In this document: one piece after another, positions 25,658-50,420 of the stretch | How positions within the stretch are numbered: position 1 is the stretch's first letter | How the letters are laid out: each line of letters begins with the position of its first letter | Source: a virus | Taxonomy: Duplodnaviria > Heunggongvirae > Uroviricota > Caudoviricetes | Strand: one strand, 5' to 3' | DNA length: 64,000 nucleotides | Virus record (IMG/VR): IMGVR_UViG_3300020451_002055 | The notes under the pieces: generated by a model | What the model saw: only the letters and a program-made list of their open reading frames with translations | The model's database searches: none | What the model was told of the DNA's origin: nothing | Made by a program: the position numbers and the translations under genes

Positions 25658-25669
25658 ATCGAGATTCAC

Positions 25670-26127: not shown

Positions 26128-27006
26128 TTATCCACGCCGATTCTTACGAGATCGACGATGCTGGCCGATGCTCTCATTCGAGTCAAGAATCTGCTGTATC
26201 AGATTCGCATCGTATCCTAGATTTTTGGCGTGCCTGCAAATCGCAGAAACGTCCTTCGGAAAGCATTTGCCTCCAAACGGCTTTTCTGACTCCTTGAAGA
26301 CCGCAGTATGCATCGGATTGATACGAGGGTCCATAAGCCATGCTTCACGCATTGCATAGTAATCAACGCCCATTCTTTCGCATAGCTCATTAATCTCATA
26401 ACAGAAAGTAACCTTCAAAGCAAAGAACGTGTTCTCGACATATTTCGTAAGCTCCGCAACAAGGGCTTCGGTCTGATGGTATATCTTAGTAGGCCCAACC
26501 ACTTTGATAAAGAACTCAACGCATTGCTTCGTGTCTTTGGAATCGCCGCCGAAGATGAACCAAGGAGTCTCCTTGACATCTTGATGAAACTTGTATTCGG
26601 TCCAGTATCTTGATTCTCCGCAAAACTCAGGAGAGAAAACAATATTCTTGCCGGTCTCTTCTTTCAGCTTGTCGGTAGTACCTGGCTCAATAGTCGATTT
26701 GATCAGAAACAGAGGAGCATCGATTTCCCGAATAGCCTCTTCAACAAGTCGAGTGTCACATGCCCCATCCTCTTCCCTCGGAGGAGTCGGCAGGCACACC
26801 ACGACAAGATCGCAGCCCTTGGCGTCCTCATATCGATGGCTGAAAGTCTGAGGAGGTCGCCCATCGCTAGGACTTTGATTGGTTACGGGTCCGTTAGACG
26901 CAACTTCCTTATACTTGATATCGACGATAACAAGTTCATAGTGATCAGCAAAGAACTCCTTCATTGCTTTACCAACGTAGCCCTCTCCAATGATGGCGAT
27001 CTTCAT
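26128..27006 (-). CDS. UDP-glucose/GDP-mannose dehydrogenase family, lacking C-terminal domain
   Basis: IIGEGYVG, CLPTP, IKST, FSPEF, ELTKYVEN, FGGKCFPKD. Confidence 0.9.
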   Translation of the reverse strand: MKIAIIGEGYVGKAMKEFFADHYELVIVDIKYKEVASNGPVTNQSPSDGRPPQTFSHRYEDAKGCDLVVVCLPTPPREEDGACDTRLVEEAIREIDAPLFLIKSTIEPGTTDKLKEETGKNIVFSPEFCGESRYWTEYKFHQDVKETPWFIFGGDSKDTKQCVEFFIKVVGPTKIYHQTEALVAELTKYVENTFFALKVTFCYEINELCERMGVDYYAMREAWLMDPRINPMHTAVFKESEKPFGGKCFPKDVSAICRHAKNLGYDANLIQQILDSNESIGQHRRSRKNRRG

Positions 27007-27095
27007 ATGCTCTTTCTCCGGCAAAGGTAGAATCTAGTTTGATACAAAAGTTATCGACATCAAAGCTCCAAAGGCACCAGCGATAGGATAAGCTC

Positions 27096-27821
27096 ATGAA
27101 CATTTTGATACCGATGGCAGGTTTAGGTAGCCGTTTCTCAGAGGCAGGATATGATGTTCCTAAGCCTCTGATTGAGTTTCATGGCAAGACCATGATTCAG
27201 CATGCCGTAGATACCCTCGGAGTAGAAGGGCAGCTAATCTTCTGTGTCCACGCAGATCATTGCAACGAACACGGTCTAGATCAGAAGCTATTGGAGTTCT
27301 ATCCAGACTGCAGAATTGTTGTTACCGACGAACTAACAGACGGCCCGGCATCGACTTGTATGCTTGCTCGGATGTGGTTCGAGAACGATGATCCTCTCAT
27401 CATGACAAACTGCGATCAGTATATGATGTGGAACGGCTCAGAGTTTCAATCGTTCCTTGACGAAACAGATGCAGATGGCGTTCTTGTGACATATTACACG
27501 GACGTTGAGCATAACAGCTACGCAAAAGTCAATGACCAGGGGCTTGTTACTCTTGTCAGAGAGAAAGAAGTCATCAGCAGATATTCTACGAACGGCATCC
27601 ATTATTGGAAGAAGGGCCGTTCATTCTGCCAGTCGTATGATGAGATGGTCAGGCAAGATGATAGGACAAATGGAGAGTTTTATGTCGCTCCGAGCTATAA
27701 CTACCTCATAGAACGGAACTTCAAGATACGCATCTACGACATAGACCCGAGTCTGCATCACGCAACAGGTACGCCAGATGATTTGAACAGGCTACTAGGC
27801 ATTTTGAAGGATGAAGCATGA
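27096..27821 (+). CDS. NTP-transferase-fold (sugar nucleotidyltransferase-like) protein
   Basis: MNILIPMAGLGSRF..GY..PKPLI, NCDQ, EKEVIS, NGEFYVAP, GTPDDL. Confidence 0.88.
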   Translation: MNILIPMAGLGSRFSEAGYDVPKPLIEFHGKTMIQHAVDTLGVEGQLIFCVHADHCNEHGLDQKLLEFYPDCRIVVTDELTDGPASTCMLARMWFENDDPLIMTNCDQYMMWNGSEFQSFLDETDADGVLVTYYTDVEHNSYAKVNDQGLVTLVREKEVISRYSTNGIHYWKKGRSFCQSYDEMVRQDDRTNGEFYVAPSYNYLIERNFKIRIYDIDPSLHHATGTPDDLNRLLGILKDEA

Positions 27822-28141
27822 AGGTAATGAAAATGAGCGAGATGAAAGGCGGCTGGTTCACTGGCGATTTTGAGCCGACCGCATTTCGAACCAAAGACTT
27901 CGAGGTTTGTTACAAGGTACATGCCAAAGGCGAGCAATGGCCGAAACACTACCACAAAGAAGCAACAGAGATCAACTATCTGATTCGAGGTCGTATGAGA
28001 ATCGGAGAAACGGAACTTGAGCAAGGAGACATCTTCGTCATTGAGCCGAATGAAGTTGCCGATCCCGAGTTCCATGAGGAGTGCGAACTAATCGTCGTCA
28101 AAACCCCTTCGGTCATTGGCGACAAGTATGAGGTTGACTGA
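27818..28141 (+). CDS. Cupin-domain protein
   Basis: KGGWFTGDFEP, HYHKEATE, GDIFVIEP. Confidence 0.85.
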   Translation: MKVMKMSEMKGGWFTGDFEPTAFRTKDFEVCYKVHAKGEQWPKHYHKEATEINYLIRGRMRIGETELEQGDIFVIEPNEVADPEFHEECELIVVKTPSVIGDKYEVD

Positions 28142-29323
28142 ATGCGTATCTTTCGAAACAGCTATGATTTGGATAGCTATTTCATAGCAGACTTCTATGT
28201 TGAGTCATCTACCAATCTAAGAGACGCAGCATGGAACATTGCTATAGGGCAAAGCGTTGGGAACCCCAACGTCCGCAACAAATGGGAAACGGACGAGCTA
28301 TTCGAAAATCATTCATGCTTCATCATAGATAGCGAGGAACGGCTAGCTTCTATTCAAAGAGGCTACGTCAAGATAGCATACCCGATCAAGAACATCAACT
28401 GGAAAGAAGATGGAGTATCTCAGCTTCTATGTCACCTAATGGGAGGGCAGCTTGACATCGATATCATACGAGCATGCCACCTCGTTGATCTAACCCTTCC
28501 TGCTCATGTTGAAGAACAGTTTCCTAAGCCCAAGTACGGGATCAAGGGTATACGAGACTTTACCGGTGTTCATGGGAAACCTTTGCTCGGAGGCATTGTA
28601 AAACCGAAGACCGGACTATCTCCCGAGGCCCTGCTTGACATCGTTGCTCAGATGGTTGAAGGCGGAGTCAACTTCATCAAAGAAGACGAGATCATGGCTA
28701 ATCCGGAGTTCTGCACAATAGGGCAAAGGCTTCCGGCAATCTCAGACTATCTTCAAGGCAAGAACGTAATCTACTGCGTCTGTATCAATGGAGACTATCC
28801 GTATATCTTTGACCGCGCAAAACAAGTCGCCGACCTTGGCGGCAATGGCATACATATCAACTTCTGGTCAGGTTTTGGAACCTACAAAGCAGTCAGAGAG
28901 CTTGACCTACCCTTGTTCATGCATTTCCAAAAGAGCGGAGACAAGATACTGACCGATAGCAGTCATCGGTTCCATATCAAGTGGACGGTCATCTGCAAGC
29001 TAGCGGGCCTAGTTGGAACGGACTTCATACATGCGGGCATGTGGGGCGGCTATATGTCGGAAGACGAAGGCAGTCTAACAGATGTTCTCGATACTCTGTA
29101 TCAGTATGATGTCATGCCCGCCCTTAGCTGCGGCATGCATCCCGGCCTAGTCAGCGCCATCGAATCAAGGTTCGGAACAAAATGGATGGCGAACTGCGGA
29201 GGCAGCATACATGGTCATAGGGATGGAACGAAAGCAGGAGCCCTTGCTATGTCGCAAGCAATCTCGGGCGAGCATGGACCAGAATATGATTGGGCCGTCA
29301 AAGAATGGGGACTGATTCAGTAA
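28142..29323 (+). CDS. RuBisCO-like protein (form IV, non-carboxylating)
   Basis: GGIVKPKTGL, GVNFIKEDE, DFIHAG, PALSCGMHPG, GGSIHGH..G..AGA. Confidence 0.93.
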   Translation: MRIFRNSYDLDSYFIADFYVESSTNLRDAAWNIAIGQSVGNPNVRNKWETDELFENHSCFIIDSEERLASIQRGYVKIAYPIKNINWKEDGVSQLLCHLMGGQLDIDIIRACHLVDLTLPAHVEEQFPKPKYGIKGIRDFTGVHGKPLLGGIVKPKTGLSPEALLDIVAQMVEGGVNFIKEDEIMANPEFCTIGQRLPAISDYLQGKNVIYCVCINGDYPYIFDRAKQVADLGGNGIHINFWSGFGTYKAVRELDLPLFMHFQKSGDKILTDSSHRFHIKWTVICKLAGLVGTDFIHAGMWGGYMSEDEGSLTDVLDTLYQYDVMPALSCGMHPGLVSAIESRFGTKWMANCGGSIHGHRDGTKAGALAMSQAISGEHGPEYDWAVKEWGLIQ

Positions 29324-29937
29324 TGTACGGTCTCAAATACATACCCGATTTAGGAAGTCAAGAAAAGAACGACCAAGACTATCCCTACATATGGAAGGAA
29401 GTCGCTCAAGAGTTCTCTGTCAGAAACCATGAAGTCCTGCGAGATCAACTGCTGTCCATTAAAGACCGCTGCGATGTCATACTTGAAATAGGCGTTGCTC
29501 GAAACGGAGAGCAATCATCATTCAAAAGCATCGTAGAAAACAAGAAGAACGATGCTATATATCTCGGAGTAGATATAGAAGATCGATCATGGATAGCGGA
29601 TATACCGAACAACATCTACTTCGTTATGACAAACTCATCTCATACGAAGTTTATCATGGACGAAGTTGAGCGTCTCTCTGGTAAGAGGGAAATCGATCTG
29701 CTTCATATCGATGGATGGCATTCTGTCAATCAGATAGTTGATGACTTCAAGTTCGCAGAATATCTCAGTCCGCATGGCATCATAGTCTGCCATGACACCT
29801 CTGCTCATCCAGGTCCGATTGAGCTATTCAAAGCTCTAGATGAAGACGTATTCGTTGGTCAGACTTTCTTTTCAGAACGCAACGATGACTGGGGTATCGG
29901 AATCATCAAGAGAGTTGCTGCTGACGCTCTCGAATGA
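29323..29937 (+). CDS. Class I SAM methyltransferase (Methyltransf_24-like)
   Basis: ILEIGV, GVDI, IDLLHIDGWHS, GIIVCHDT; TAATG overlap with RLP. Confidence 0.8.
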   Translation: MYGLKYIPDLGSQEKNDQDYPYIWKEVAQEFSVRNHEVLRDQLLSIKDRCDVILEIGVARNGEQSSFKSIVENKKNDAIYLGVDIEDRSWIADIPNNIYFVMTNSSHTKFIMDEVERLSGKREIDLLHIDGWHSVNQIVDDFKFAEYLSPHGIIVCHDTSAHPGPIELFKALDEDVFVGQTFFSERNDDWGIGIIKRVAADALE

Positions 29938-30595
29938 TATTGCGGATACCCTTTGTCAGGACAACCTTCGATTCTGTTGGCTTGATATCATCAAAGTATC
30001 GAAGACCACACATGATTCGACCTTCATGCTCCCAAGGGTCTCTCGAAGTCAATGCTTTCTCGATGTAAGAACGATCGACTTCTTGTCCCATCCATGCATA
30101 AATATCCGATGCCTGGTTGATAGGGTCTTCGATGAGCTTGCTGTAGTCTACGACATACGGATCAGTAACAGTCGGAAGCCATTTCGAGACGACGGGCACT
30201 GAGTCGAAATAGTCATTGACGCAGTTCGCTGGCTTGTGACCAAACGTTTTGACCTGCGAGTTGATAGCCCCCATTGGGTCTCGAACGATATGGATAACCT
30301 TGGCTTCGGGAAACAGACTGAGCATCTTCTTGACGCTCTGCCTTGCCTGCTTGAATGTTGAATACGGAATCTTCTGACCGGAACGAATGGACATGATGGC
30401 TCCGGTCTTTTTCTTGGCCTGAGTCGCATCGTATGTCATTGTCTTGATAGCATGCTCTCTCGACTTGGCATCAAGAAGAAGCTTCCTTCGTTCATGGACC
30501 AACTCATACTTGAGGCCTGGATGCATAGATACTACTCGCCTCAGAAGCGTAGTGCCCGATCGCTCGTATCCTATGATCAAGAATGGAGTGTTCAT
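29906..30595 (-). CDS. Sulfotransferase family protein
   Basis: 5'-PSB IIGYERSGTTLL; 3'-PB IHIVRDP..AINS; YSKLIEDP. Confidence 0.85.
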   Translation of the reverse strand: MNTPFLIIGYERSGTTLLRRVVSMHPGLKYELVHERRKLLLDAKSREHAIKTMTYDATQAKKKTGAIMSIRSGQKIPYSTFKQARQSVKKMLSLFPEAKVIHIVRDPMGAINSQVKTFGHKPANCVNDYFDSVPVVSKWLPTVTDPYVVDYSKLIEDPINQASDIYAWMGQEVDRSYIEKALTSRDPWEHEGRIMCGLRYFDDIKPTESKVVLTKGIRNIIRERQQQLS

Positions 30596-31326
30596 AGAGA
30601 GTGCCTCACGCTGAATATCTCATCTGACAAACCGACTAGTTCGTCGTCCTCGAAAATTTTGCGGTAGACCGCATTGTCTCTAAACGCTTGCCATCGATTG
30701 AATAGATCGTTCTTGTTCAAAGACTTTGTTCCGGTAAAGCTGCTGCCGCCTCCATGAGCAGGAACGTAGTCTATCTGAGCGTCCTTGAAGTTTAGGTGCA
30801 AACTCTCTGCCAACTGTTTCCGGTAATCCTTACTGATGGCCCATTCATTGTAGTTGATGAACCTCGAAGACGCAGGCAGAATAGATGTATGACCCAACGA
30901 TTCATAAGCAAGAGCCTTCCATTCTGGTATGATCTTGTCGTATATGTATTCATCTCTTGCTTCGTTTGCTTTTCCCTTAGACGGGTATAGCTTCGCTTCT
31001 TTATTCTGCCAGTTCTTCAAAAACGAAGCCATCATATTGTACGGGTCTCTCAGCGAATAGAGGATAATCCTATCTGACAGAGATGAGAAGGCAGGTATCT
31101 CCTTGCTCATCCTATCAAACTCGGATAGGCAGCATTGATGCTTACCGTGCTGAACGTTCTCTCGCAACACCCTTACCGAGCCGTCATTCATGTCCTCATT
31201 GAAATAGGCTCTCATGCCGTTCTTGGTCAGCATTTGGACATCGCCCTCTATCTCTCCGAGTATCCAATACAAGACGGCGTTTCCGCCGCCTCTGCCCATG
31301 CAAAAGAGATAGATATGCCGATACAT
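30592..31326 (-). CDS. Divergent sulfotransferase-like protein
   Basis: FCMGRGGGNAV, LRDPYNMMAS, INYNEW, GGGSSF; TGATG coupling. Confidence 0.6.
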   Translation of the reverse strand: MYRHIYLFCMGRGGGNAVLYWILGEIEGDVQMLTKNGMRAYFNEDMNDGSVRVLRENVQHGKHQCCLSEFDRMSKEIPAFSSLSDRIILYSLRDPYNMMASFLKNWQNKEAKLYPSKGKANEARDEYIYDKIIPEWKALAYESLGHTSILPASSRFINYNEWAISKDYRKQLAESLHLNFKDAQIDYVPAHGGGSSFTGTKSLNKNDLFNRWQAFRDNAVYRKIFEDDELVGLSDEIFSVRHSL

Positions 31327-31985
31327 CAACCAATGCCCTTCCAAGTGGCCCCGTTTGTAGTCCAATGATGAGTGCATTCCATAGAGGGGTCGTAGAGTAT
31401 CTTGCGATCTGCCTCAATAACATCTTTGGCCCAATAGCGATCCTCTTTGCCGTAGAGTTCTTCGTCAAACGGAAACTCCTGAAGAACCGACTTGCGGTAG
31501 CATGCCATGGCATTGTGCAAGAACCACCTATCTTCTTCCTCTGCCCATGGATTTTCTTTGGGCTCTGCTCCAAAGTTGTGCCATATGTACCTTCTGCTAA
31601 TCCGTCTGCCTTTGTAAACTGGTATCTGCTTGCCAAAAACAGAAGCATATGACTTGAGCTTTTCCTCAATGTCCGACGCATCAAAACGAGTAATGATACA
31701 ATGAGCAGAGAGTATCATTAGATGTTCATTGCTCGCCATCTCGACAGCATGATTGATCGAACGACCAGGAGAGTAGTCCTCTATACTTCCAACCTTGATG
31801 TCATGCCATTTCTCGAACATGCGAACGATATCCATTGAATCATCGCTGCTATTGTTGTCCATGACGATGATCTCAGGATCTCGTAGCGAATCAACAACAG
31901 ACTGAATAGCATAGCCAATGAACCGCTCCTCGTTGCGGTTTCGGATGATTACGGAGTAGTTAGGACCATCTTCCTGCATAGACAT
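31326..31985 (-). CDS. Glycosyltransferase family 2
   Basis: SVIIRNRNEE, MDNNSSDDS, LSAH, FDEEL..KEDRYW. Confidence 0.88.
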   Translation of the reverse strand: MSMQEDGPNYSVIIRNRNEERFIGYAIQSVVDSLRDPEIIVMDNNSSDDSMDIVRMFEKWHDIKVGSIEDYSPGRSINHAVEMASNEHLMILSAHCIITRFDASDIEEKLKSYASVFGKQIPVYKGRRISRRYIWHNFGAEPKENPWAEEEDRWFLHNAMACYRKSVLQEFPFDEELYGKEDRYWAKDVIEADRKILYDPSMECTHHWTTNGATWKGIG

Positions 31986-32745
31986 CTCTCGCTTCCTGCT
32001 CGCACTGTTGGTAATCTCTGCCTCGATCTACTTGCATGAGGTTGACTTCTCTCATGTAGTTGGCAATGATTTCGAGGTCTTCCGGAAGCAAAGCGAACTT
32101 GTTATCTCGACCCGGAAGAGTCTTGTCAGTAGTGAAATGCTTTTCGATGTATTCGCAACCCATGGTTGCTGCAGCGATAGCATCGAAGTATCCATCGTAG
32201 TGGCCGCTATAGCCAACTCTAGGAGTCAAAGATCGAAGACCTTCGATGCGTTGAAGGTTGACCTGATCTGCGGGACAAGGGTAAGAGGAGACGCAATGCA
32301 GCAGAACAACATTGCCGTACTCCGCCCATCTGCTTGCTTCTTCGAACTTAGTGGCTCCGGTTGAGATAAGGACGGTATTGAACATATTGATGGCTTCAAG
32401 AACAAGCTCTTCGTTCGTGCATTCCGTGCTAGCTATCTTGACCATATCGCCAAGCTCCCGAATCATCGGAAGGTCGGCTTTATTGAAACATGATGTTAGA
32501 AAACCAATGTTCGCATCTCTGCAGAAATCTGCAAGCTGATGATGCTGATCTCTATTGATTTGAGCCTTCTCGTATATCTGGCGACGACCGTCGTCGTCCC
32601 AAGGTCCGGACTTCAGATTGTCAACGCTCCAAGTCTGAAACTTGGCGTAGTCTGCTCCGGATTGAGCAGCAGCAAATACCATAGACTTAGCCAAATCCAT
32701 GTCGCCCATATGATTCCAGCCGATTTCTGCGATTAGCTTAGACAT
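31960..32745 (-). CDS. neuB: NeuB-family ulosonic acid synthase 1 (no SAF domain)
   Basis: IAEIGWNHMGD, AKFQ, KIAS, ISTG, LHCVSSYP, GYSGH, IEKHFT. Confidence 0.9.
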   Translation of the reverse strand: MSKLIAEIGWNHMGDMDLAKSMVFAAAQSGADYAKFQTWSVDNLKSGPWDDDGRRQIYEKAQINRDQHHQLADFCRDANIGFLTSCFNKADLPMIRELGDMVKIASTECTNEELVLEAINMFNTVLISTGATKFEEASRWAEYGNVVLLHCVSSYPCPADQVNLQRIEGLRSLTPRVGYSGHYDGYFDAIAAATMGCEYIEKHFTTDKTLPGRDNKFALLPEDLEIIANYMREVNLMQVDRGRDYQQCEQEARDVYAGRWS

Positions 32746-33385
32746 GTGATCCTTTCTCATTGAACCAAAGGGTATCTTGCCTGAACTTAGAGCAAGATAC
32801 GAATCCGATTTCCTCAAGAAGCCCTCTCAGGCTATCTTCGGAAGATTCAATCAAAAGCCACTTGGCTTTGGCTACAGCTTCTTTGCCATGGGCAACAATG
32901 ATCTCATCCGCTTCTTCAGCGTCAATTTTGATAAAGTCAGGTTGAACTTTATTTACTTTCGACCAATCATCTAAAACCTTGAAAGAAGCCATGCAAGCAA
33001 GCTTATCTGCTCCGACTCTGTACAGTCCAGTGTTCTGAACATCGTTTCTTTCTTGGGGTATACCCATTTGCAGATCAGCTTCTTCTTTCCAAAAGCCAAA
33101 GTTATGCAGATTGATATCGCAACCATACTTGGTCGCCTTAGATACATGCTTGCTAAGATACTCGAAGTTAGAACCAACAGGTTCAAAAGCGTGTATTACG
33201 GAACCCGGAAATGCTTCAGCAAAGGCCAGAGTATAGATACCCATGTTGGCTCCTATGTCCAATACTGTTTCAACCGAACAGCCTAAACCTGATTCCAGCA
33301 TGTATTCTTTGCAGCCTCGAACAGCCCTATAGTTGGCCTGAACAAGCTTCGGATTGACCATGTAATGATCTGACCACATGCCCAT
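32738..33385 (-). CDS. FkbM-family methyltransferase
   Basis: LDIGANMG, AFEP, FIKIDAE. Confidence 0.85.
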   Translation of the reverse strand: MGMWSDHYMVNPKLVQANYRAVRGCKEYMLESGLGCSVETVLDIGANMGIYTLAFAEAFPGSVIHAFEPVGSNFEYLSKHVSKATKYGCDINLHNFGFWKEEADLQMGIPQERNDVQNTGLYRVGADKLACMASFKVLDDWSKVNKVQPDFIKIDAEEADEIIVAHGKEAVAKAKWLLIESSEDSLRGLLEEIGFVSCSKFRQDTLWFNEKGSHV

Positions 33386-37808: not shown

Positions 37809-38481
37809 CTGACACCTCGCTTGCCATTTTAGAAAGAATGGTAATGACTTCCGTAGAAGTCTGACTCCAATCGTTGCTGTTTATACGACCAAGAAGTTCT
37901 ATGTTGTCTTGCAAGCTTTTCATGAGTTGCTGCTTCTGGTCAACCGGGTAAACCTTGCGGCCTTCAAGATTAAGAGAGATCGGAATGCCTTTGGTTTCCG
38001 CTTGGGAAAAGTCCCAATGGTCCGAATGCTCGGTTCTGCGGAAGTCCCAAGGATGGATAGCTGCCAAGCCTGCGTTCTCCATAAATCGAGTCAGGCTAGC
38101 CTCATCAAAGAGCATGTAATGGAAGTTTTGCTCATAGGTCTGTCCTCCCATGAAGGGGCCTATGACCGATGAAATATCTCCGCAAGACTGGTATATCTCG
38201 ATGAGACGCTCTAGGGAAGGAACGGATACTCGCAGCAGTCCTCCGGGCTTGAGAACCCTGACCCATTCGGTCAAGATGGACTGTATATCGCTTCGCTTGA
38301 AATGCTCAAGAACATGAGCCACATATACCATGTCAAAGGTATCATCTTCAAACTGATCGAGAGGGTAAATGTCGCCCTCATGCTGAACGCCCGGAATGTT
38401 CCTGATATCCATGTTCTCGAACGGCTCGGGCAGGATGACGGTCCCGCAGCCCAAGTGTAGATATCGCTTACTCGTACTCAT
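37801..38481 (-). CDS. SAM methyltransferase (type 11-like)
   Basis: [23 protein letters not shown]. Confidence 0.85.
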
Positions 38482-42787: not shown

Positions 42788-43443
42788 TGATTTTCCTTGA
42801 GATACTTAGAGAAGCTTCGCTTAGGAGCATTCTGTTTGTCGATCCATTCAGTTCGCTTGTCATACTGCTCTTTCATAGGAATATCGCATTTGAACATAGC
42901 GCTTCGATGATTCTTCATATGTCTTCCAGAAGGCGAGTTTCTGGCCCATATCTTCTCATACTTCCTCAAGTCCTCGTTGGGAGCGGACGAATGAAGAGCG
43001 ATTACGCTTGGATCATTGATGTACCTTAGATTGGCATTGCGGCAATCCTCCAAAAACGGAGGGTCTACTCTGCCTGAACTTCTGGCTCTGAATCCTCCAA
43101 CCCTTTTTATGAGGTTTCTGTCATATATTTTGACAGACTGAATGCGCTTCTTAGTAGCAACATCATACAGATGCCAATATCGCATGACCACATCTTTTTC
43201 GAATGGGATGAACTGCTGCAAATACTCAACAGACCTCGGATGAAACAAGAAGTCATCATCCACTTTAAGGAAGTATCGAGATATGTCTCGCCGCTTTGCT
43301 AAATGGTTCATGGCATCGACCATAGTCATGTCTTCCACGACGTGAATCTTGATCTTCATAGTCTGCTCTTGCAAAGAACGTATGCAATAGTCAAAGCTAG
43401 AGCGCCCATTTGTTAGAATACATGCGTCGAATACTGAAGTCAT
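42784..43443 (-). CDS. GT-A glycosyltransferase-like, paralog B
   Basis: FLKVDDDFLFHPRSVEY; co-linear with 42044-42787. Confidence 0.7.
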   Translation of the reverse strand: MTSVFDACILTNGRSSFDYCIRSLQEQTMKIKIHVVEDMTMVDAMNHLAKRRDISRYFLKVDDDFLFHPRSVEYLQQFIPFEKDVVMRYWHLYDVATKKRIQSVKIYDRNLIKRVGGFRARSSGRVDPPFLEDCRNANLRYINDPSVIALHSSAPNEDLRKYEKIWARNSPSGRHMKNHRSAMFKCDIPMKEQYDKRTEWIDKQNAPKRSFSKYLKENQ

Positions 43444-44222
43444 TTGATGCTCTCAAGGAAAGGGATAAGCCTACTCTTGTAAAGGCCATCATTTAGGTTG
43501 CGGGTTTGAATGTGCTGAATCTCTTTGAAGGTAGACCGGTTCTTGATCATGTCTGTCTTATGCCAAAAGACCATGCCTCGAACCCTTAAGGCTCCGGCTA
43601 CATGGTAAAGGCCGGTATCGTTTGAAACGAATGCATCGCATCTGGCTAGAACAGAAACGCTCTTTCTGAGATTCAACTTACCCGCGAGAACAATGCATTT
43701 GCTGGTATCATTGGCTTTCCAGAAGTTGTTTACATCTCCCTTTGAACCAAGAAGAACAGGAACCATGCCATGACGAACGATCTCATCTATCATCATTTGT
43801 CTATTGGAGGCTCCGATGTCTTTTCTCTTCTTCAATACTGTTCCAAGACAGCCATGAAAGACAGCTATATACTTCTTGTCTTCTTGTATCTCAAAGTCAT
43901 ACTCTGAAGCATCTGGCCGGTCAACATATGTCGAAGGGATTGGACCCTTGTGCCCAAGCTGTATCCTGCAATAGGCTTCCGAGTCTGTTTCTTCGCCTCT
44001 CCTAGCTTTCGGATGTCTACTTGAACCGTATGAAGCAGGACCGGCAGGCCTCTTCTTTAGAACCTTGATGAAGTCTGCGTCTCTGTATAGAGTAGCAAGC
44101 TGATCGTTCGTAAAGAACGTAGGAACAGGTTTCCCTATCCGCTTGCTTTGCAACTGCATCATGGGCGTTGCCATAACGAAGTTACCAAGTCCCCAGTCTC
44201 TTTCTTGTATGAAATAGCTCAT
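43440..44222 (-). CDS. Glycosyltransferase family 9-like
   Basis: GLGNFVMATP, LAGKLNL, FVSNDTGLYHVAGAL. Confidence 0.85.
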   Translation of the reverse strand: MSYFIQERDWGLGNFVMATPMMQLQSKRIGKPVPTFFTNDQLATLYRDADFIKVLKKRPAGPASYGSSRHPKARRGEETDSEAYCRIQLGHKGPIPSTYVDRPDASEYDFEIQEDKKYIAVFHGCLGTVLKKRKDIGASNRQMMIDEIVRHGMVPVLLGSKGDVNNFWKANDTSKCIVLAGKLNLRKSVSVLARCDAFVSNDTGLYHVAGALRVRGMVFWHKTDMIKNRSTFKEIQHIQTRNLNDGLYKSRLIPFLESIK

Positions 44223-44224
44223 GA

Positions 44225-45199
44225 TTACATATGCGGCAGCATGCGGCCAATGACATCAACCCATCTGAATCCATTGAGAACGAAGTTTCGAGCGGGGTTA
44301 GGATCGAAGTTCTCTTTCAAGTGTTCAAGCATCTCAAATGCATGGTCGTTTATCTTGCTGTAATGATGCGATGTAGAAGGGTTCATCAAGTCAGTGTGCA
44401 GTCGATTCTTCATGGAGACGACATGAGCGCCGCATGCTTGGGTCTCGATGACCGGAAGCTCATACAAGCCCGATATGCCGCTGATGTAGACATGGGCTCT
44501 CTTGTAGACCTCTACAACATCAGTAAACTTCTCCTTGGGACGAGCCTTGCCCGCCCTATTGAATCCCAAGAAGTCAACCTTATAGCCTCGCTTTGTTAGC
44601 GACTCGATGATATCAAGAGACATCTTGATAGTTGGAGCATCGGTCGGTCCTCTCGATCCGTCTACAAGAACAGTAAACTCGTCTTGGTTGGGATAAAGAA
44701 GCTCGGTATCCGCCCCTCGGCCAACGAAGTAGGACCGACTAAGAAGACGCTGCCTTGGAGAATTATACTGACCGTTCTTGTAGTAGGGATTGGACAGGTT
44801 TAGGTAAGCCTTTCGAGACAGAAAGTAGGCGTCGAAGATGCTACTAGCAGGTATCAGATTCGTGTAGTAGTATCTGCGCTTGCATTTTGCTTTGATACTC
44901 TTCATTAGCGGAGCAATCTCTCTGACCATGACATCCGTATCGTAGTAACATAGAAAGCAATGATCATATGAACTATCGAGAGGTTGTACACCTTTTCTGG
45001 GAACAAAATGGTAGTCCACCTTAGCTCCGCACATCTCAAAAAGCGACCCGATAGAAAAGCCTAGGACTGCATAAATGCTATTGATGTTTCTGTTGGGTCT
45101 ATAGCGGCTGGCAATACAGATGCGGCTTCCGTCTACCTTGGACCGGATAGCTTCCTCCATGCCAGAATCTTGCAAAGTCTTGTAAAGCGTGTCGTACAA
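44225..45199 (-). CDS. Glycosyltransferase (GT4-like)
   Basis: YKRAHVY, YELPVIETQACG, F.W at C-end. Confidence 0.7.
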   Translation of the reverse strand: MYDTLYKTLQDSGMEEAIRSKVDGSRICIASRYRPNRNINSIYAVLGFSIGSLFEMCGAKVDYHFVPRKGVQPLDSSYDHCFLCYYDTDVMVREIAPLMKSIKAKCKRRYYYTNLIPASSIFDAYFLSRKAYLNLSNPYYKNGQYNSPRQRLLSRSYFVGRGADTELLYPNQDEFTVLVDGSRGPTDAPTIKMSLDIIESLTKRGYKVDFLGFNRAGKARPKEKFTDVVEVYKRAHVYISGISGLYELPVIETQACGAHVVSMKNRLHTDLMNPSTSHHYSKINDHAFEMLEHLKENFDPNPARNFVLNGFRWVDVIGRMLPHM

Positions 45200-45209
45200 G
45201 CTAGTCTCC

Positions 45210-46253
45210 TTACGTCATACTCTGAGCTAGCTGAACGTAGTCTCTAGCCATATACTTTGCATCAAGATGTTCCATGAAGTATTCCTTTGTATTCGCCTGC
45301 AGACTGGCGAGTAGCTCGGGATTCTGAGCAAGCTTTTTCAGTCGGTTATACATGATCTTACGGTCCTTGCAGATAAATCCATTGTTCCATTTCTTGATAC
45401 ATTCAGTATTTCCTGGTCGGTTGTTGATAATTGCAGGTTTGCCGCACGCTAGAGCCTCAAGCATCGACATGCTAGTTCCCTCGTCCCCTACGATCTCATA
45501 CAAGAAGACATCCCAACTCTTGATGTATGCAATCTTCTTCTCGAAGTCGTTGATTCTACCGGGAAGATTGAGATAGACCTTGTTTTTCTGCTTTCTGTAT
45601 TTCTTGTTTGCCTTCAAAGCATAGTTCCTAGACAAAGAATATCGCTGACCTGCTCCGAGGTAATCGTGCCAATGACTCACGCCCGATATGGGGGTCTCGC
45701 TCAGCCATCGCAGCCATGTCTTAGGGTGCTTTGTCGCATTGAAATTATTGAGACGACCCGAAACAAAATAACCCTCGCGATCCTCGTCTCGCAAAGGCTT
45801 AATATTCTCATATCTACAAGCGTTGACCCCGTTGCGGATCATTACTAGTCCCTTAGACCGAATCTTACGCTTCATCGTATGAAGCATGTGATTTGAAACG
45901 CAAACAAGGTTATCGCAATCCGCAAGACCAACCGGATTTTTTGCTTGAGTATGATTGATGATATTGAAGGGAACCTTGCGATATAGAGCATCAGAAGCTC
46001 CGCTGCAGTTGGTCCTAGATATCTTGTGCATGAAGACTACTGGATTTGTATAGTTGGATCGAATATGATCAAGTATCTGGTCAGTATTGACAACATCATC
46101 TCCCTGGCCGGGAGATTTGCTTGATAGGCTGATAATGGACTGGCTGACTTCATTTCCATGATGTTTGTCGATAGCAAAATGTAGCTCATCAAGCATGCTG
46201 CCAGCGCCGTAGACTAGCTTGTTGGGTATTAGGTGAATGATCTCTACCATCAA
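45210..46253 (-). CDS. Glycosyltransferase (GT4-like)
   Basis: CVS, IRNGV, GRL, EGTSMSMLEALACGKP, NGF. Confidence 0.88.
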   Translation of the reverse strand: MMVEIIHLIPNKLVYGAGSMLDELHFAIDKHHGNEVSQSIISLSSKSPGQGDDVVNTDQILDHIRSNYTNPVVFMHKISRTNCSGASDALYRKVPFNIINHTQAKNPVGLADCDNLVCVSNHMLHTMKRKIRSKGLVMIRNGVNACRYENIKPLRDEDREGYFVSGRLNNFNATKHPKTWLRWLSETPISGVSHWHDYLGAGQRYSLSRNYALKANKKYRKQKNKVYLNLPGRINDFEKKIAYIKSWDVFLYEIVGDEGTSMSMLEALACGKPAIINNRPGNTECIKKWNNGFICKDRKIMYNRLKKLAQNPELLASLQANTKEYFMEHLDAKYMARDYVQLAQSMT

Positions 46254-46264
46254 AACTTCCTTCG

Positions 46265-46906
46265 ATGAAAAACCCTTACGTCAACCTTGAACGCAACGAT
46301 CAACTGCAACGAGGATTCTCTGCTCAAATCAGAGATCAGACAGTTCCCGTTGAATCCTTTATCGGCGATTTGCTCGAATGGATGAGGAAACCTACCAGCA
46401 CTTATGAACCATATGCTAGGTGCATCCGAGAGAGCATAGGGATAGGCAGGAACGGCAAAGACGCAGACATCGAACAGATCAAAAAGTACCTTCCAAGGTT
46501 TGAAGAGATCATGGAAATCTCCAAGATCAAGGGTAGCCCCTTCTCTAAAATGATCCTGAGTGAATCTTTAGGACACAGGTATGCCGACCTTTGGTTATCA
46601 GAAAAGAGTCAAGAGCTAGAATGCAAAATGATCGAAGCCTACAAGATGGCTTACGAATCGGCGGTCGAAGGTAAATATCTAAAGAATCAGGACTCTGCAC
46701 CTTACTGGCTAGCGAAAGCGTATGAGAAAGCCAATCAAGTCGAGAAGGCCTACATCCACTACCGGTTCGTACTGGAACGAAAAGGAGGCCGCTTCAAGCA
46801 GGCCTCCCATAGAGAAAAAATCGAAGAGTCGAGACGGTTCGTCAACGCTCGCCGGTCTCGTTTTCAGTCAACCAGTCGTGACCCATTTCAGCTACCACCT
46901 GCTTAG
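46265..46906 (+). CDS. Hypothetical protein with TPR-like C-terminal helices, opposite strand
   Basis: Fills the gap between GT4 and kdsC; APYWLAKAYEKANQVEKAYIHYRFVL. Confidence 0.65.
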   Translation: MKNPYVNLERNDQLQRGFSAQIRDQTVPVESFIGDLLEWMRKPTSTYEPYARCIRESIGIGRNGKDADIEQIKKYLPRFEEIMEISKIKGSPFSKMILSESLGHRYADLWLSEKSQELECKMIEAYKMAYESAVEGKYLKNQDSAPYWLAKAYEKANQVEKAYIHYRFVLERKGGRFKQASHREKIEESRRFVNARRSRFQSTSRDPFQLPPA

Positions 46907-47345
46907 CGAATGCTCGGATGGCGCATTGACCTCCTTGGGCAGGAATAACAAAATCGGCCTCGTCCTGAACTTCTCGGATAGCATTCCAGGGACAAGCTGA
47001 GAATCCGGCCTTTTTGATGGCCGCCAGATCATTCTCTGCGTCTCCGATGAATCCAACCTCGTCCCAAGTATATTCGTCGCCTATGATCTCTTCTATGGCC
47101 TCTACCTTGTTCTGAACATCAGAAACGCATTCGAGATTTACAGAAGCAGCCTTGACATCCACAGCGCCGTCGTTCGCCCCTGTTAGGATGATGACTCGGA
47201 TGCCAAGCGAGCGAAGCCTATGTATGGCGTGAAAGTCCGCTGTATTGAACACCTTTGTCACTGAGCCGTCCGATGAAACAAAGTAGTTACCATCAGTGAG
47301 CGTCCCATCGCAGTCTATGAACAGAATCTTGAAATCAACCTTCAT
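46842..47345 (-). CDS. kdsC: KdsC-family HAD phosphatase (ulosonate-phosphate phosphatase)
   Basis: DCDGTLTDG, K.FN..D, ILTG, IGDAEND, GG..AIR. Confidence 0.88.
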   Translation of the reverse strand: MKVDFKILFIDCDGTLTDGNYFVSSDGSVTKVFNTADFHAIHRLRSLGIRVIILTGANDGAVDVKAASVNLECVSDVQNKVEAIEEIIGDEYTWDEVGFIGDAENDLAAIKKAGFSACPWNAIREVQDEADFVIPAQGGQCAIRAFAKQVVAEMGHDWLTENETGER

Positions 47346-47347
47346 TG

Positions 47348-48214
47348 TTACCCCTTGAACTTCAGTTTCTTGCGTTGGGCAAGCTCTTCGTCATCCATAT
47401 CTATTGGTCTGTAATCGAGCGATGCTTTGACCGCCTGCAAATCTCTCACAAGCCTCGACAGGCCTCCGGGCTCCAAACTGGCGGCAGCATCGGTGTGCCT
47501 GACCGTTCTGTCATCGATGAAATGCCGCTCGATCCATTCGGCTCCGAGCATATAGCCAGCAATGTCTGCCGCTATGCCTTTGCCGTGGTTGGAGAATCCG
47601 ATACGGATCGGAGTGCCTTCGAGCATCGATTTCAGTCTTGGGATCTCTAATAAATGCAGGTCTTTGAAATCGCAAGGGTATTTACTAGTGCAATGATAGA
47701 TGACCGTTCTGCTCTGGATGCCCGATGCTTCGACAAAATCGAGTAGCCTGCTCATTTCCTCTCTTGTTGTCATTCCGGTTGAAATGTGCAGGTCGCCCTC
47801 GTAGTTCTTGGACAAAAACTCTAGCATGTCATAGTGCTGATTGCATGCGCTTGGAATCTTGATAAGCGGAGGGCTAAGTTCAGCAACCTCTCTGGCGGAT
47901 GTCATATCCCATACTGATGTCGTATAGACGATGCCGATCGAGTCGCAGTAGGACTGAAGCTCTGCATGCTTTTCAATGGAGAACTCAAGATTGATGCGAT
48001 GTTCAAGGTATGTGTCGCCATAAGCGAACAGCTTATTTGGATGCGGCTTGTCCCGTATATCGAGAGGAGTGCTTTCGTGAGGATTTCTTTTCTGAGTCTT
48101 GACATAAGGGGCTCCGCAGAGCTTGGCGAGTCGGCAAAGCTCCTTGGCCCGCTCGAAGTCTCCCAAATGAGAACAGCCGATCTCGGCAATGACTTGAGGT
48201 TGTTCGTAGTTCAT
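47348..48214 (-). CDS. neuB: NeuB-family ulosonic acid(-9-phosphate) synthase 2 (no SAF domain)
   Basis: IAEIGCSHLGD, KTQKR, KIPS, HCTSKYP, GFSNH, IERHF, TDAAASLEP. Confidence 0.92.
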   Translation of the reverse strand: MNYEQPQVIAEIGCSHLGDFERAKELCRLAKLCGAPYVKTQKRNPHESTPLDIRDKPHPNKLFAYGDTYLEHRINLEFSIEKHAELQSYCDSIGIVYTTSVWDMTSAREVAELSPPLIKIPSACNQHYDMLEFLSKNYEGDLHISTGMTTREEMSRLLDFVEASGIQSRTVIYHCTSKYPCDFKDLHLLEIPRLKSMLEGTPIRIGFSNHGKGIAADIAGYMLGAEWIERHFIDDRTVRHTDAAASLEPGGLSRLVRDLQAVKASLDYRPIDMDDEELAQRKKLKFKG

Positions 48215-48921
48215 AAGAATCCGCCGTAATGTTTAGCAGCCATTTCCATCAGAGCGAAATCATCCTCTGTATCGATCTGCATGCTTTCGAACTGAGAACA
48301 TTGCTCCAACAATGGACGATCCGTTATCCGCCCGTTGCTACTAAACTTATCGGCTTCTATGATGTATAGGTTGCCATTGTCATGATAGTACATCTCGTAA
48401 CGTTCTAGGTCTTGTCTCATCTTACGCTTACCGGAATATTTACAGCGAGCCCCTCCATCGTCATATTGCCAGAAGAACGGGGTATGCTCGCTGACCGTCA
48501 TAAGACTGTCTGCTCCGTAGTCCGTTATCCGTTTGTAACATCTATCTATCAATCTATTGGGACGAGCAGGAGATGTTGGTTGCAAGAGAGATACATACTT
48601 AAAAGAGACATCGAGTTTAGATATTTCATCAATAGCATGGGTCATGGCATCTTCTGTTGTGGATGAATCGCCGCAAAGCTCTTCTGGTCGTTCAATGATC
48701 CGTACTGTATCGCTTCCGTGATCTCGATTGAAACCTTCTGCTATTCTGATGATCTCGGGATCATTTGTCGAAACTGCTATCTCTGCTCTATGGCTGAAAC
48801 GTCTTGCTGCCTCGATAGTCCACCATGTCAGCGGTTTGCCGTCGATCTCTCGGTAGTTCTTGCCGGGCACTCCCTTCGAACCGGCTCGGGCAGGTATAAC
48901 GAATAGTACGGGAACATGCAT
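48211..48921 (-). CDS. neuA: CMP-ulosonic acid synthetase 2 (NeuA family)
   Basis: IPARAGSKGVPGKN, LLQPTSP, RQDL, NGNLY, QIDTEDD; start ATG 48921. Confidence 0.92.
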   Translation of the reverse strand: MHVPVLFVIPARAGSKGVPGKNYREIDGKPLTWWTIEAARRFSHRAEIAVSTNDPEIIRIAEGFNRDHGSDTVRIIERPEELCGDSSTTEDAMTHAIDEISKLDVSFKYVSLLQPTSPARPNRLIDRCYKRITDYGADSLMTVSEHTPFFWQYDDGGARCKYSGKRKMRQDLERYEMYYHDNGNLYIIEADKFSSNGRITDRPLLEQCSQFESMQIDTEDDFALMEMAAKHYGGFL

Positions 48922-48922
48922 A

Positions 48923-49669
48923 TCATTTGAGCCTATCTGCGTATTTGTCCAAAACATCTTCAAGAGCCATCTTGGGAAAACTCTTAAGTAAACCTTCTGT
49001 AGCGGTATCAATGATCTCTACTTTGCCCTTATTGGTAGCTGCGAACTCCCTCCAATATTCATGGAAGTCAATGCAGTGATGATCGACGGGCTTGTCTTCT
49101 ATTCGTCCGCGGTTTGGAGTAGAAAAGAATCGAGTGCCTATTTTGATAGGAGCCTTCTCTCCAGGGAACTGCCAGAAGTATCTTTTGCGTCCTACATAGC
49201 AACAATCGCAACCCATCAGAACAATAGGATCGCACCCCATGATGTATGCGAGATGAACAGCCGTGCCCATCGAAGTCCTAGCTCCGACTATAGGCTTGCT
49301 AGCCTCTCTCGTAAGCTCTAGACCTTCCGGGTATTTCTTCTTCTTGCTCGGATCATACCAAGTCTTATGAGAGAAGAACGCAACATCTTCTTCGCGAAAA
49401 TGAGAGACCGCATCTGCTAGCTTTGTCTTGAACAGAAGCTTCTTGCATTTGCTGTCTCTCGCTGTTTGTAGGTAGTAACTCCATTCTCTGACGCCTTGGT
49501 CATCAGAGACAAAGTAATCGCAGTCCGGCATCTTGACAATACCAGAGTTGACAGTGATCGTTACATACTTAGAGAGCGGAGTTACATCGACGCCGTGCAG
49601 AGACGGACCTGCTCCGATCAAGAACGCAGCGCTACCCTTGTGCTTGTTCTCTATTTCGCTGAGTTCCAT
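48923..49669 (-). CDS. DUF115/Maf-like (sialyltransferase-fold) protein, paralog A
   Basis: NKHKG..AFLIGAGPSL, VN, A.HLAYIMGCDPIVLMGCD. Confidence 0.8.
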   Translation of the reverse strand: MELSEIENKHKGSAAFLIGAGPSLHGVDVTPLSKYVTITVNSGIVKMPDCDYFVSDDQGVREWSYYLQTARDSKCKKLLFKTKLADAVSHFREEDVAFFSHKTWYDPSKKKKYPEGLELTREASKPIVGARTSMGTAVHLAYIMGCDPIVLMGCDCCYVGRKRYFWQFPGEKAPIKIGTRFFSTPNRGRIEDKPVDHHCIDFHEYWREFAATNKGKVEIIDTATEGLLKSFPKMALEDVLDKYADRLK

Positions 49670-50420
49670 ACCTTTGCAGCACCTCCGGTAGGCTCATTCT
49701 TGGAAACGCATCGATAAGCGAGTCAGTAGATGCATTGATAATCTCTACGCCTTTATTAGCATCGGCAACCGCTCTCCAATACTCCAAGAAATCCCTGCAA
49801 TGTTGATCAACCGGACTGCCGTTGATATGGCCTGAGTTCGCTTTGGCAAAAACTTTCCGGTAAGGAGTATCAGAAACTACCTTCTTCCAACCAGGGAACT
49901 GCCAGAAGTATCTCTTGCCCTGAACATACTTTGCATCGCATCCAAGAAGAACAATCGGATTGCAACCCATGATCTTAGCAAAATGGACAGCAGGACCGGC
50001 TGAGGTTCTTGCTCCAATGATTTCGCTCTCGATGGACATATCGAGACCTCTGTCAGTAGCATTCTCATCGTAATGGGGATCATGCGGAGACTGACAATGA
50101 TAAAAGCACTTTTCATCGTCAGGAATAGGTTCAGATACATCGTCCATTCGTAGAGCTTGAAAGAGCTTGATGGAATCGCCCTTTAAGACTTCCTCTTGCC
50201 AGTAGTCCCATTCAGCGCAGACCGGATCGCCTGTCAAAAAGAACTCAGCATCAGGAACGGCTCTGATACCAGAGTTGACAGCAATACGAGTATGGCCTTT
50301 GAGCAGATCAAGGTCTTGGAAATGCAACGACGGACCTGCCCCTACGACAAATCCGATCGTGCCTGTCCTTGAATCTTTGAGGTCAGAGATCAGCAAAACA
50401 ATCCATGCTCCCTCTTCCAA
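49632..50420 (-). CDS. DUF115/Maf-like (sialyltransferase-fold) protein, paralog B
   Basis: FVVGAGPSL, IMGCNPIVLLGCD, KRYFWQFPG shared with paralog A; start uncertain. Confidence 0.8.
   Translation of the reverse strand: MEEGAWIVLLISDLKDSRTGTIGFVVGAGPSLHFQDLDLLKGHTRIAVNSGIRAVPDAEFFLTGDPVCAEWDYWQEEVLKGDSIKLFQALRMDDVSEPIPDDEKCFYHCQSPHDPHYDENATDRGLDMSIESEIIGARTSAGPAVHFAKIMGCNPIVLLGCDAKYVQGKRYFWQFPGWKKVVSDTPYRKVFAKANSGHINGSPVDQHCRDFLEYWRAVADANKGVEIINASTDSLIDAFPRMSLPEVLQRYGTQRNREQAQG

Follow-up and report, generated by a model that had tools for sequence, protein, structure and literature searches.

The 64,000-nucleotide stretch analysed here (the window) is a part of the genome of an uncultured huge phage of the half-megabase class, listed in IMG/VR as record IMGVR_UViG_3300020451_002055, and carries at positions 26128-50420 an island of approximately 24 kb with genes for the activation, transfer and modification of sugars (Table 1). 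An earlier note on the same DNA had put the island at about 30 genes, and 31 open reading frames (ORFs) are counted, tightly packed, with most overlaps of 1-8 nt and a few of up to 89 nt. Twenty-five of them span positions 50420 to 29906 on the minus strand, broken by a single plus-strand ORF, and the far end is formed by a plus-strand four-gene cassette followed by a minus-strand dehydrogenase-like gene. A composition scan found uniform guanine-plus-cytosine (GC) content and no compositional island signal, and the island is thus a functional rather than a compositional one. It contains a conserved six-gene core, composed of a NeuB-type synthase, a YrbI-family phosphatase, a transferase that activates sugars with cytidine monophosphate (CMP), two minimal Maf-like proteins and one glycosyltransferase of family GT4. 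A megablast search of 50,697 phage records with the island gave zero matches, and there is no close isolate in that collection; the closest public relatives, IMG/VR contigs of 164-548 kb, include several that have terminal repeats and are rated complete. All genome-level statements beyond the window are read from these relatives (G001-G007), and whole-genome negatives are based on G003, a complete relative of 498,568 bp with terminal repeats and 610 ORFs.

Table 1. Features of the window and of related loci. Positions refer to the window unless a relative or locus is named.
Feature	Position	Strand	Basis
UvrD helicase, three small ORFs and Dam-type DNA methyltransferase	50383-54595	-	Pfam, PHROGs, synteny
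Two tandem minimal Maf-like genes (MptE/DUF115, sialyltransferase-fold), 49632-50420 and 48923-49669	48923-50420	-	PF01973, AlphaFold2 (AF2)
Core CMP-nonulosonate pathway (predicted): NeuA 48211-49011, short NeuB 47348-48214, YrbI-family HAD phosphatase 46842-47345	46842-49011	-	Pfam, PDB sequence
Opposite-strand ORF between HAD and GT4 genes	46265-46906	+	Coding-like composition; no family match
Core GT4, sixth gene of the minimal island	45210-46253	-	PF00534, E 3e-13
Variable transferase block	38478-45199	-	Pfam, ESM Atlas, AF2 + Foldseek, paralogy
Second ulosonate and sugar-modification block	31326-38481	-	Pfam; NeuB PDB matches
Sulfotransferase 29906-30595 and 261-aa ORF 30592-31377	29906-31377	-	PF13469 for sulfotransferase
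Divergent four-gene cassette: NTP transferase, cupin, RuBisCO-like protein, CmcI-like methyltransferase	27096-29937	+	Pfam
Short NDP-sugar dehydrogenase-like gene, conserved far end of island	26128-27024	-	PF03721 + PF00984
Open-ended ORF (at least 1083 aa), ortholog of the relatives' ~1350-aa protein	2-3250	-	Runs off left window edge
Second Maf-like cluster	G003 40404-45472 (L006); L134 4070-8893; L142 3813-8261
DUF6734 genes	L130 13211-14749; G005 106553-107242; G007 47299-48126
Three poly-Ser proteins of G006	L140 8206-14530

Three adjoining genes of the core would supply its sugar. Both NeuB proteins of the island (PF03102, E 8.4e-56 and 1.1e-51) match Pse, Neu5Ac and SpsE synthases among PDB sequences, both are about 285 amino acids (aa) long without a SAF domain, and two NeuA proteins are recognised by CTP_transf_3 (E 4e-22 and 7e-13). 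The phosphatase belongs to the YrbI family (C0 HAD) and matches KdsC entries and the Bacteroides KDN9P phosphatase in the PDB (E 1e-14 to 8e-20), with slightly better scores against the KdsC-type entries; its neighbours are a synthase of NeuB rather than KdsA type and a CMP-transferase. Taken together, NeuB, the YrbI-family phosphatase and NeuA are predicted to form a 9-phosphate route to a CMP-nonulosonate. The Kdn/sialic-acid route, represented by the Bacteroides thetaiotaomicron KDN9P phosphatase (3E81/3E8M/4HGO), likewise has these enzyme families side by side; the phage set differs from it in its more KdsC-like phosphatase and its lack of SAF. As to which sugar is made, none of the island ORFs was assigned as a NeuC, an aminotransferase or an acetyltransferase. 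The 38478-39566 product shows a GT-B/epimerase_2-like fold that resembles UDP-GlcNAc 2-epimerase, TagF and capsule-synthesis enzymes in the ESM Atlas, together with a weak PseG hit, and judged by this fold it could be either a transferase or a NeuC/PseG-type hydrolase. The second NeuB-NeuA pair (31960, 35111) is accompanied by 2-hydroxyacid dehydrogenase and FkbM-like genes, and the second NeuB and the dehydrogenase are also adjacent in G003. Between the HAD and GT4 genes of the core the window has plus-strand ORF 46265-46906, where GC by codon position is coding-like and the minus-strand frames are full of stops; at this point G001 and G003 instead have a conserved same-strand gene of 327-355 aa.

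The two Maf-like proteins (248 and 262 aa) are paralogs with 41% identity, and PF01973 detects one above its cut-off (48923-49669, E 6.4e-10, 39.5 bits) and the other below it (49632-50420, E 9.9e-7, 29.1 bits). Searching with 48923-49669 returned 145 proteins at E<=0.001, the best 120 of which are 232-288 aa long, are named 'hypothetical protein' at most and in many cases lie on contigs of 100-550 kb. A profile of 30 homologs found no match among PDB sequences, and kinship to Maf appears at the level of the modelled fold only. The AF2 model (predicted local distance difference test, pLDDT, 95.8) has its best structural alignment with residues 261-519 of Magnetospirillum Maf 5MU5 (VIA Z 17.0, root-mean-square deviation 3.2, 202 residues), followed by the MptE HPPK pyrophosphokinase (Z 12) and the sialyltransferases CstII, ST8SiaIII and ST6GalNAc2 (Z 9-10). 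Maf itself consists of three domains, and its central pfam01973 domain resembles CstII (PMC11339370). The whole phage chain aligns to that central domain, and the rest of the architecture of approximately 600 aa, an N-terminal Rossmann-like and a C-terminal helical domain, is missing. The phage proteins are therefore best named predicted minimal Maf-like nonulosonate transferases, and their modelled fold would fit either Ser/Thr as acceptor, as for Maf, or a sugar, as for CstII. Tannerella nonulosonate transferases were considered as a precedent for Maf-like enzymes on sugar acceptors and dropped, as they are not described as Maf-like in PMC5420450. With the Maf flagellin O-glycosyltransferases of Magnetospirillum (5MU5) and Clostridium botulinum (PMC11339370) the phage proteins share the central PF01973 fold and the linkage to NeuA and NeuB, the order Maf-Maf-NeuA-NeuB-HAD being adjacent in the window and in the related loci of the clade. 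A further likeness would be that the whole pathway is cytoplasmic and the protein modified before export or assembly. They differ in size (248-262 against 632 aa, both flanking domains missing; PMC11339370) and in the expansion of the family to 2-8 Pfam matches per phage genome, and no flagellin is known here, although no flagellin search was made.

Eleven genes of the island have a transferase fold, in line with the roughly 11 glycosyltransferases of the earlier note: five are recognised by Pfam (GT2, three GT4 and GT9), four at fold level and two are the Maf-like genes, and the ORFs at 39551 and 35809 are two further weak candidates. Nine ORFs have no Pfam match, four of which were resolved at fold level. 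In the variable transferase block the GT-B-fold gene (38478-39566) is followed by the weak GT2-like gene (39551-40177), two GT4 genes (40174-41130 and 41127-42047), two GT-A paralogs with 31% identity that are GT-A/GT2-like in the ESM Atlas (42044-42787 and 42784-43443), GT9 (43440-44222) and a GT4-like gene (44225-45199). The product of the last belongs to a family of 13 representatives, is modelled as GT-B/GT4-like (AF2 pLDDT 90) and has MshA, GlgM, TreT and PimA as best Foldseek matches (E ~1e-7). For the core GT4 the nearest solved sequence is PglA, in the C-terminal domain only.

The second ulosonate block begins with GT2 (31326) and the second short NeuB (31960), continues with two FkbM-like genes (32738, 33385), a 2-hydroxyacid dehydrogenase (34161; D-2-hydroxyacid dehydrogenase, E 6e-40), NeuA (35111) and a no-match ORF (35809), and closes with a nicotinamide adenine dinucleotide (NAD)-dependent epimerase/dehydratase (36756; Epimerase, E 5.5e-40) and a class I methyltransferase (37801). 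ORFs 30592, 33385, 35809 and 46265 received no assignment from NCBIfam, PHROGs or loose Pfam searches, and phmmer against the PDB gave no match for 30592 or 35809. The plus-strand cassette is absent from G001-G003 and presumably makes an unusual activated sugar; its RuBisCO-like protein (RuBisCO_large, E 1.8e-32) scores 170 bits against type III, 155 against MtnW-type enolase and 128 against OiaX in NCBIfam, all far under the equivalog cut-offs. The modifying enzymes proposed in the earlier note fared unevenly. Pfam and PDB sequences bear out the two NeuA, two NeuB, KdsC-type phosphatase, two Maf-like proteins and epimerase, and two of the four methyltransferases are recognised by Pfam (Methyltransf_11, class I, and CmcI-like), the other two being weak FkbM hits (E 0.002 and 0.078). 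Just one of the two sulfotransferase-like genes stands: 29906-30595 matches Sulfotransfer_3 (PF13469, E 1.5e-17) and its translation has the 3'-phosphoadenosine-5'-phosphosulfate (PAPS)-binding motifs GYERSGTT and RDP, whereas 30592-31377 has no family or solved-sequence match in Pfam, NCBIfam, PHROGs or the PDB. The nucleoside diphosphate (NDP)-sugar dehydrogenase (298 aa) retains the NAD-binding and central UDPG_MGDP_dh domains and lacks the C-terminal domain. It is 62-72% identical in G001, G003 and G004, at the same island end (287 aa in G003, 383 aa in G001), and may be a functional short variant or partner-dependent.

According to a Kyte-Doolittle scan with a 19-residue window, which is cruder than TMHMM, none of the 31 island ORFs has two or more hydrophobic segments, as the earlier note had held in seeing no transmembrane proteins. 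Two single segments occur, a Rossmann N-terminus and an internal stretch of the 33385 ORF, and no N-terminal signal-like segment was found; multi-pass membrane ORFs are likewise missing from the islands of the related loci. The flippase, Wzy, ABC exporter and initiating transferase that the note had reported as lacking are absent from the island and, as families, from the complete G003 genome, where a six-frame search found no Bac_transf (PF02397), Glycos_transf_4 (PF00953), Polysacc_synt/Wzx, Wzy_C, ABC2_membrane or PMT_2 (GT-C), with control genomes positive for each. The flippase, polymerase/ligase and ABC-2 permease families PF01943, PF04932 and PF01061 are absent from G001-G003, although a divergent Wzy-like protein could escape Pfam. 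Multi-pass ORFs scanned in G003 comprise an ABC importer permease and several proteins without assignment. The importer permease (BPD_transp_1) lies at G003 310146-316393 (L019) with an OmpA-domain protein that has an NMT1-like solute-binding part and with other membrane proteins.

The island occupies the same locus in G001-G003, with UvrD on one side and, where the contig reaches the other border (G001, G003), the short dehydrogenase and two small conserved genes. Orthologs of the Maf-Maf-NeuA-NeuB-HAD end and of one GT4 stand in the same order in these relatives (35-68% identity; 38-47% for the GT4); most of the approximately 20 genes between core and far end are not orthologous. A Maf-profile search recovered 47 IMG/VR loci, about 30 of them of this clade, and nearly all those that reach far enough keep the order Maf(-Maf), NeuA, NeuB after UvrD, usually with the HAD phosphatase placed after NeuB. 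Locus L062 has NeuA-NeuB-HAD without a called Maf ORF, and the same contig gives a 53% Maf match by tblastn (L095). In L054-L056 just Maf(-Maf)-NeuA-NeuB-HAD-GT4, with two Maf genes in L054 and L055 and one in L056, precedes the far-flank genes, an arrangement that is read as the minimal six-gene island, the remainder being a hypervariable cassette. As a control for bias the clade was also sampled through a neighbouring gene family (alignment A3; a single-protein search with the neighbour gene found unrelated loci only, and an alignment query was needed), giving 33 loci, 29 of them long enough to judge, and in 27 of the 29 a Maf-like gene lies downstream of UvrD. NeuB (1-3 copies) and PF01973 matches (2-8) are present in each of the five complete or near-complete genomes that were searched. 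The fixed locus, the neighbour-based sample and these genomes together make the core part of the conserved gene set of the clade. The 24-kb form in the window is one of many expansions, in a pattern resembling that of a serotype locus, and the differences in cassette between close relatives suggest diversifying selection on an exposed surface.

Candidate acceptors were sought in the relatives. Only two of the 610 ORFs of G003 have a 40-aa window with at least 50% Ser+Thr, and one of these (265858-266859) encodes a 333-aa protein with a 180-aa N-terminal domain, for which a single further database relative was found, and a tail of approximately 150 aa of the form (SSPGSSVG)n. It is followed in order by a 348-aa Maf-like gene (PHROG 'alpha-2,3-sialyltransferase', E 1.6e-8; PF01973, E 6e-5; Maf profile, E 6e-11 and 5e-10), an unassigned gene, a GT8 (PF01501, E 3.6e-6) and a 2-oxoglutarate (2OG)-Fe(II) oxygenase. 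Chance alone would place one of two such ORFs next to one of five Maf-like genes among 610 with a probability roughly estimated at a few percent. The gene of the tailed protein belongs to an operon conserved in G003, G004, G005 and G007, which consists of a CCA enzyme, a protein of ~1350 aa, one of ~620 aa with a weak vWA hit, and the tailed protein itself. G004 has two tandem tailed paralogs, with (PPPPPTS)n and (APPPT)n tails, and phmmer against the PDB gave no match for the two genes that follow them. G004, G005 and G007 each have exactly one DUF6734 (PF20508) gene, for a protein of ~505 aa, which in every case is the next gene after that of the Pro/Thr/Ser-tailed protein, and some DUF6734 homologs also have a GT2 domain; DUF6734 is thus a candidate glycosyltransferase family for these tails. 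ORF 2-3250 of the window is the start of this operon, in which the ~1350-aa protein stands two genes before the candidate acceptor in the relatives, and the acceptor gene of this phage is therefore expected immediately to the left of the window. The small ORFs that are listed on the plus strand at 173-3008 probably shadow ORF 2-3250.

Similar pairings were found further afield. In G006, a contig of 547,943 bp, a 233-aa ORF with the motifs G-x-GPS and IGVD and a weak PF01973 match abuts a poly-Ser protein of ~170 residues, and two nearby proteins of 560-582 aa, LamG-like by eye, have poly-Ser tails and share a 247-residue stretch that is 69% identical. The Maf-like homolog P0092 lies on a 547,943-bp contig that is labelled a Candidatus Asgardarchaeia metagenome-assembled genome (MAG) at NCBI; as the contig of equal length in IMG/VR is a virus (G006), the MAG label is probably a binning error. 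In locus L066 a Maf-like gene has four poly-Ser proteins within 3.5 kb. Among cultured phages, only the Caulobacter jumbo phages CcrPW and CcrColossus have a detectable Maf-like homolog. In CcrPW a 217-aa Maf-like gene (profile E 2.8e-15; NC_048046.1 106444-107094, L144 8971-9621), annotated as alpha-2,3-sialyltransferase, begins at the final base of the gene for a 1667-aa tail protein, to which it is translationally coupled and which itself follows a tail-fibre gene. The CcrPW genome has no NeuB, so its enzyme would draw on host CMP-sugar.

The island is flanked by phage replication proteins recognised by Pfam and PHROGs, namely a clamp loader, a processivity-factor-like protein, a UvsX-type recombinase, a UvrD-type helicase, a piece of DnaE-type polymerase and a CCA-adding enzyme. 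The UvrD and Dam-type methyltransferase genes upstream belong to the same gene string as the island, and by synteny UvrD is its conserved left anchor across the clade. DNA methyltransferases flank the island on the minus strand, one of N6/N4 type (22979-23911) approximately 2 kb past one end and the Dam-type gene (50383-51333) adjoining the other, and in G001 and G003 an N6/N4-type methyltransferase is placed between UvrD and the Maf genes. Promoter scan counts and the terminator count for 25000-44999 equal the shuffle background; the terminator-like count for 45000-56000 is above it (18 against 8.7, standard deviation 3.1) and gave no operon boundary or timing.

On this evidence it is about an even proposition that the island is a phage-encoded cytoplasmic glycosylation system acting on phage proteins. 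Under such a mechanism the core would make a CMP-activated nonulosonic acid by the 9-phosphate route and transfer it, and the strain-variable extension would add activated sugars, about nine more transferases, O-methylation and sulfation, giving a different acidic glycan in each phage. The acceptors would be phage proteins whose poly-Ser or Pro/Thr/Ser tails resemble mucin and which are probably displayed on the virion or released along with it, and these would be O-glycosylated in the infected cell before assembly, in the mode of Maf on flagellin and of GT4 and GT8 enzymes on serine-rich-repeat adhesins. Support for a protein acceptor is circumstantial and comes from the Maf-like genes beside poly-Ser or Pro/Thr/Ser-tailed proteins and in the CcrPW tail operon. 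The earlier note's cytoplasmic acceptor, most likely virion proteins, thus gains support from gene neighbourhood, while the place of the candidates in the virion is our inference. Its sulfated, ulosonic-acid-bearing coat keeps its ulosonate pathway genes, the word 'sulfated' hanging on one enzyme.

Several points weigh against this interpretation. Soluble enzymes of the GT2, GT4 and GT9 families occur just as typically in the lipid-linked synthesis of O-antigen and core, and those of O-antigen pathways have no membrane segments either. The phage is uncultured and its proposed glycosylation is read from its genes; the island is located in the replication module and not near structural genes; and the candidate acceptor gene of this phage lies beyond the window, the candidates coming from relatives. 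As the N- and C-terminal domains of Maf are missing from the Maf-like proteins, these may use a sugar acceptor in the manner of CstII rather than Ser/Thr. Finally, a second Maf-like gene or pair in G003, G004 and G005 sits 2 kb downstream of two small membrane proteins, one of ~125 aa with 2-3 hydrophobic segments and one of ~360 aa with four, from which it is separated by three unassigned genes (two Maf-like genes in G003 and G004, one in G005). These membrane proteins are too small for Wzx or Wzy, and the cluster may represent a branch of the glycosylation system that is associated with the membrane.

As the main alternative, the same enzymes could remodel the host surface, by building or capping a glycan on a host undecaprenyl-linked primer or on host glycoproteins (flagellin, pilin, S-layer) that the host flippase, ABC exporter and ligase would then display, the altered cell surface serving, for example, to block superinfection during a long infection. 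The earlier note took the absence of membrane genes to imply a cytoplasmic acceptor, an implication that is not binding, because host lipid carriers and exporters could still serve; as soluble GT2, GT4 and GT9 enzymes act on lipid-linked acceptors, this explanation stays viable, though we consider it unlikely. It accords with the GT9 and with GT4 whose nearest solved sequences are PglA-like and WaaF-like, both of them typical of lipid-linked pathways, with a conserved core and variable outer part that mirror lipopolysaccharide (LPS) core and O-antigen loci, and with the co-direction of island and replication genes, which fits expression before assembly. It also has a precedent in the polymorphic clusters of jumbo cyanophages, which hold paralogous transferases, NDP-sugar enzymes, cupins, HAD phosphatases and O-methyltransferases and are read as modifying LPS or capsule and pre-empting other phages (Iyer et al., 2021; PMC7824862). 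Those clusters resemble the island as polymorphic glycan-gene clusters in very large phages, but they are said to occur sporadically and are read as acting on the surface of the host, and the article mentions neither a nonulosonate nor a Maf module, with zero occurrences of 'sialic' or 'nonulosonic' (PMC7824862), whereas the core here is near-universal at a fixed position in the clade. Further, G003 is complete and lacks an initiating transferase, flippase, polymerase/ligase and ABC-2 gene, host exporters would have to accept many different phage-made glycans, and the extra Maf-like genes have phage proteins of low complexity as neighbours or, in the cultured phages, tail genes.

A product with no macromolecular acceptor, such as a free oligosaccharide, glycoside or secondary metabolite, or simply redirected host nucleotide-sugar pools, is decidedly improbable. 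The RuBisCO-like protein, cupin, methyltransferases and 2-hydroxyacid dehydrogenase do occur in small-molecule pathways as well, and another cluster of cyanophages has been interpreted as a metabolite pathway (PMC7824862), but the minimal clade-wide module combines an activated-sugar pathway with three transferases, the architecture of glycoconjugate synthesis, and core scaffold enzymes (polyketide synthase, non-ribosomal peptide synthetase, aglycone synthesis) were not seen. Least credible, to the point of near dismissal, is the alternative acceptor of the earlier note, DNA (or RNA) bearing the glycan or a single ulosonate or hexose to evade restriction, because G003 has no ThyA-family hydroxymethylase (PF00303) and so lacks the known hydroxymethylcytosine/hydroxymethyluracil (hmC/hmU) route, and because about 11 transferases, O-methylation and sulfation better suit a polymer on protein or lipid. 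We know of no nonulosonate or multi-sugar heteroglycan of such size on DNA. The flanking DNA methyltransferases and the location in the replication module speak for it, as does the phage DNA glycosylation with diverse sugars that is known from work cited in PMC12619734.

Set against known systems, cytoplasmic glycosylation of phage proteins finds several partial parallels. Giant viruses offer one: CroV has a 38-kb cluster defined in silico, which combines a Kdo pathway and five transferases with a UDP-Glc dehydrogenase and sugar methyltransferases, the glycan itself being unverified (PMC9614988), and Mimivirus has clade-specific autonomous glycosylation clusters (PMC10117803). As in these, a viral activated-sugar pathway and many soluble transferases share one lineage-variable cluster that includes ulosonic acid, dehydrogenase and methyltransferase genes, and the combination of soluble transferases and sugar supply without membrane export genes that marks autonomous viral glycosylation is what the island and the G003 searches show. 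Giant-virus hosts are eukaryotic, whereas the phage host is bacterial, its acid is of NeuB rather than KdsA type and its transferases are Maf-like. In Gram-positive bacteria, GtfA/B GT4 and GT8 enzymes glycosylate serine-rich-repeat adhesins in the cytoplasm. The Ser-rich, low-complexity candidate acceptor of G003 near a soluble GT8 and other transferases is comparable by analogy only, as there is no accessory Sec system and the adjacent transferase is Maf-like. In mycobacteriophages, according to work by Freeman and colleagues (Freeman et al. 2023), phage transferases reportedly act on C-terminal extensions of structural proteins of the phage itself. In that case one or two genes for transferases stand beside capsid or tail genes and use host sugars, unlike a 24-kb island with its own sugar pathways, a place in the replication module and a putative acceptor. 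That virions of mycobacteriophages are glycosylated is known from work cited in PMC12619734. Moraphages were considered as the lineage of the present phage and rejected, being a different lineage with genomes up to 307 kb (PMC12619734). Literature searches turned up no account of huge phages with a conserved module that joins a nonulosonate pathway to Maf-like transferases. To our knowledge, no nonulosonate glycoprotein made entirely by a bacteriophage has been reported.

More broadly, and more tentatively than for the island itself, it is possible that a whole clade of marine phages of ~0.5 Mb produces a sialic-acid-like sugar of its own and uses an expanded family of minimal Maf-type enzymes to O-glycosylate phage-encoded, mucin-like virion proteins with poly-Ser or Pro/Thr/Ser tails. 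The outcome would be a 'phage mucin' coat that is acidic and methylated, varies between strains and is in some cases sulfated. If instead the host surface were the target, the island would be an example, unusually large and found across the clade, of a lytic phage reprogramming the surface of its host. Little is understood of the acceptor rules of nonulosonate transferases, and the pairs of minimal Maf-like enzyme and candidate acceptor described here are testable and thus useful in this regard, with CcrPW and CcrColossus providing a cultured model for the Maf-like gene. Should the glycosylation of phage proteins hold true, it would represent a bacterial-virus counterpart of giant-virus fibril glycosylation and, equipped with a nonulosonic-acid pathway of its own, roughly a dozen transferases and a variable cassette, would join the one- or two-transferase glycosylation of mycobacteriophages with the glycan factories of giant viruses.

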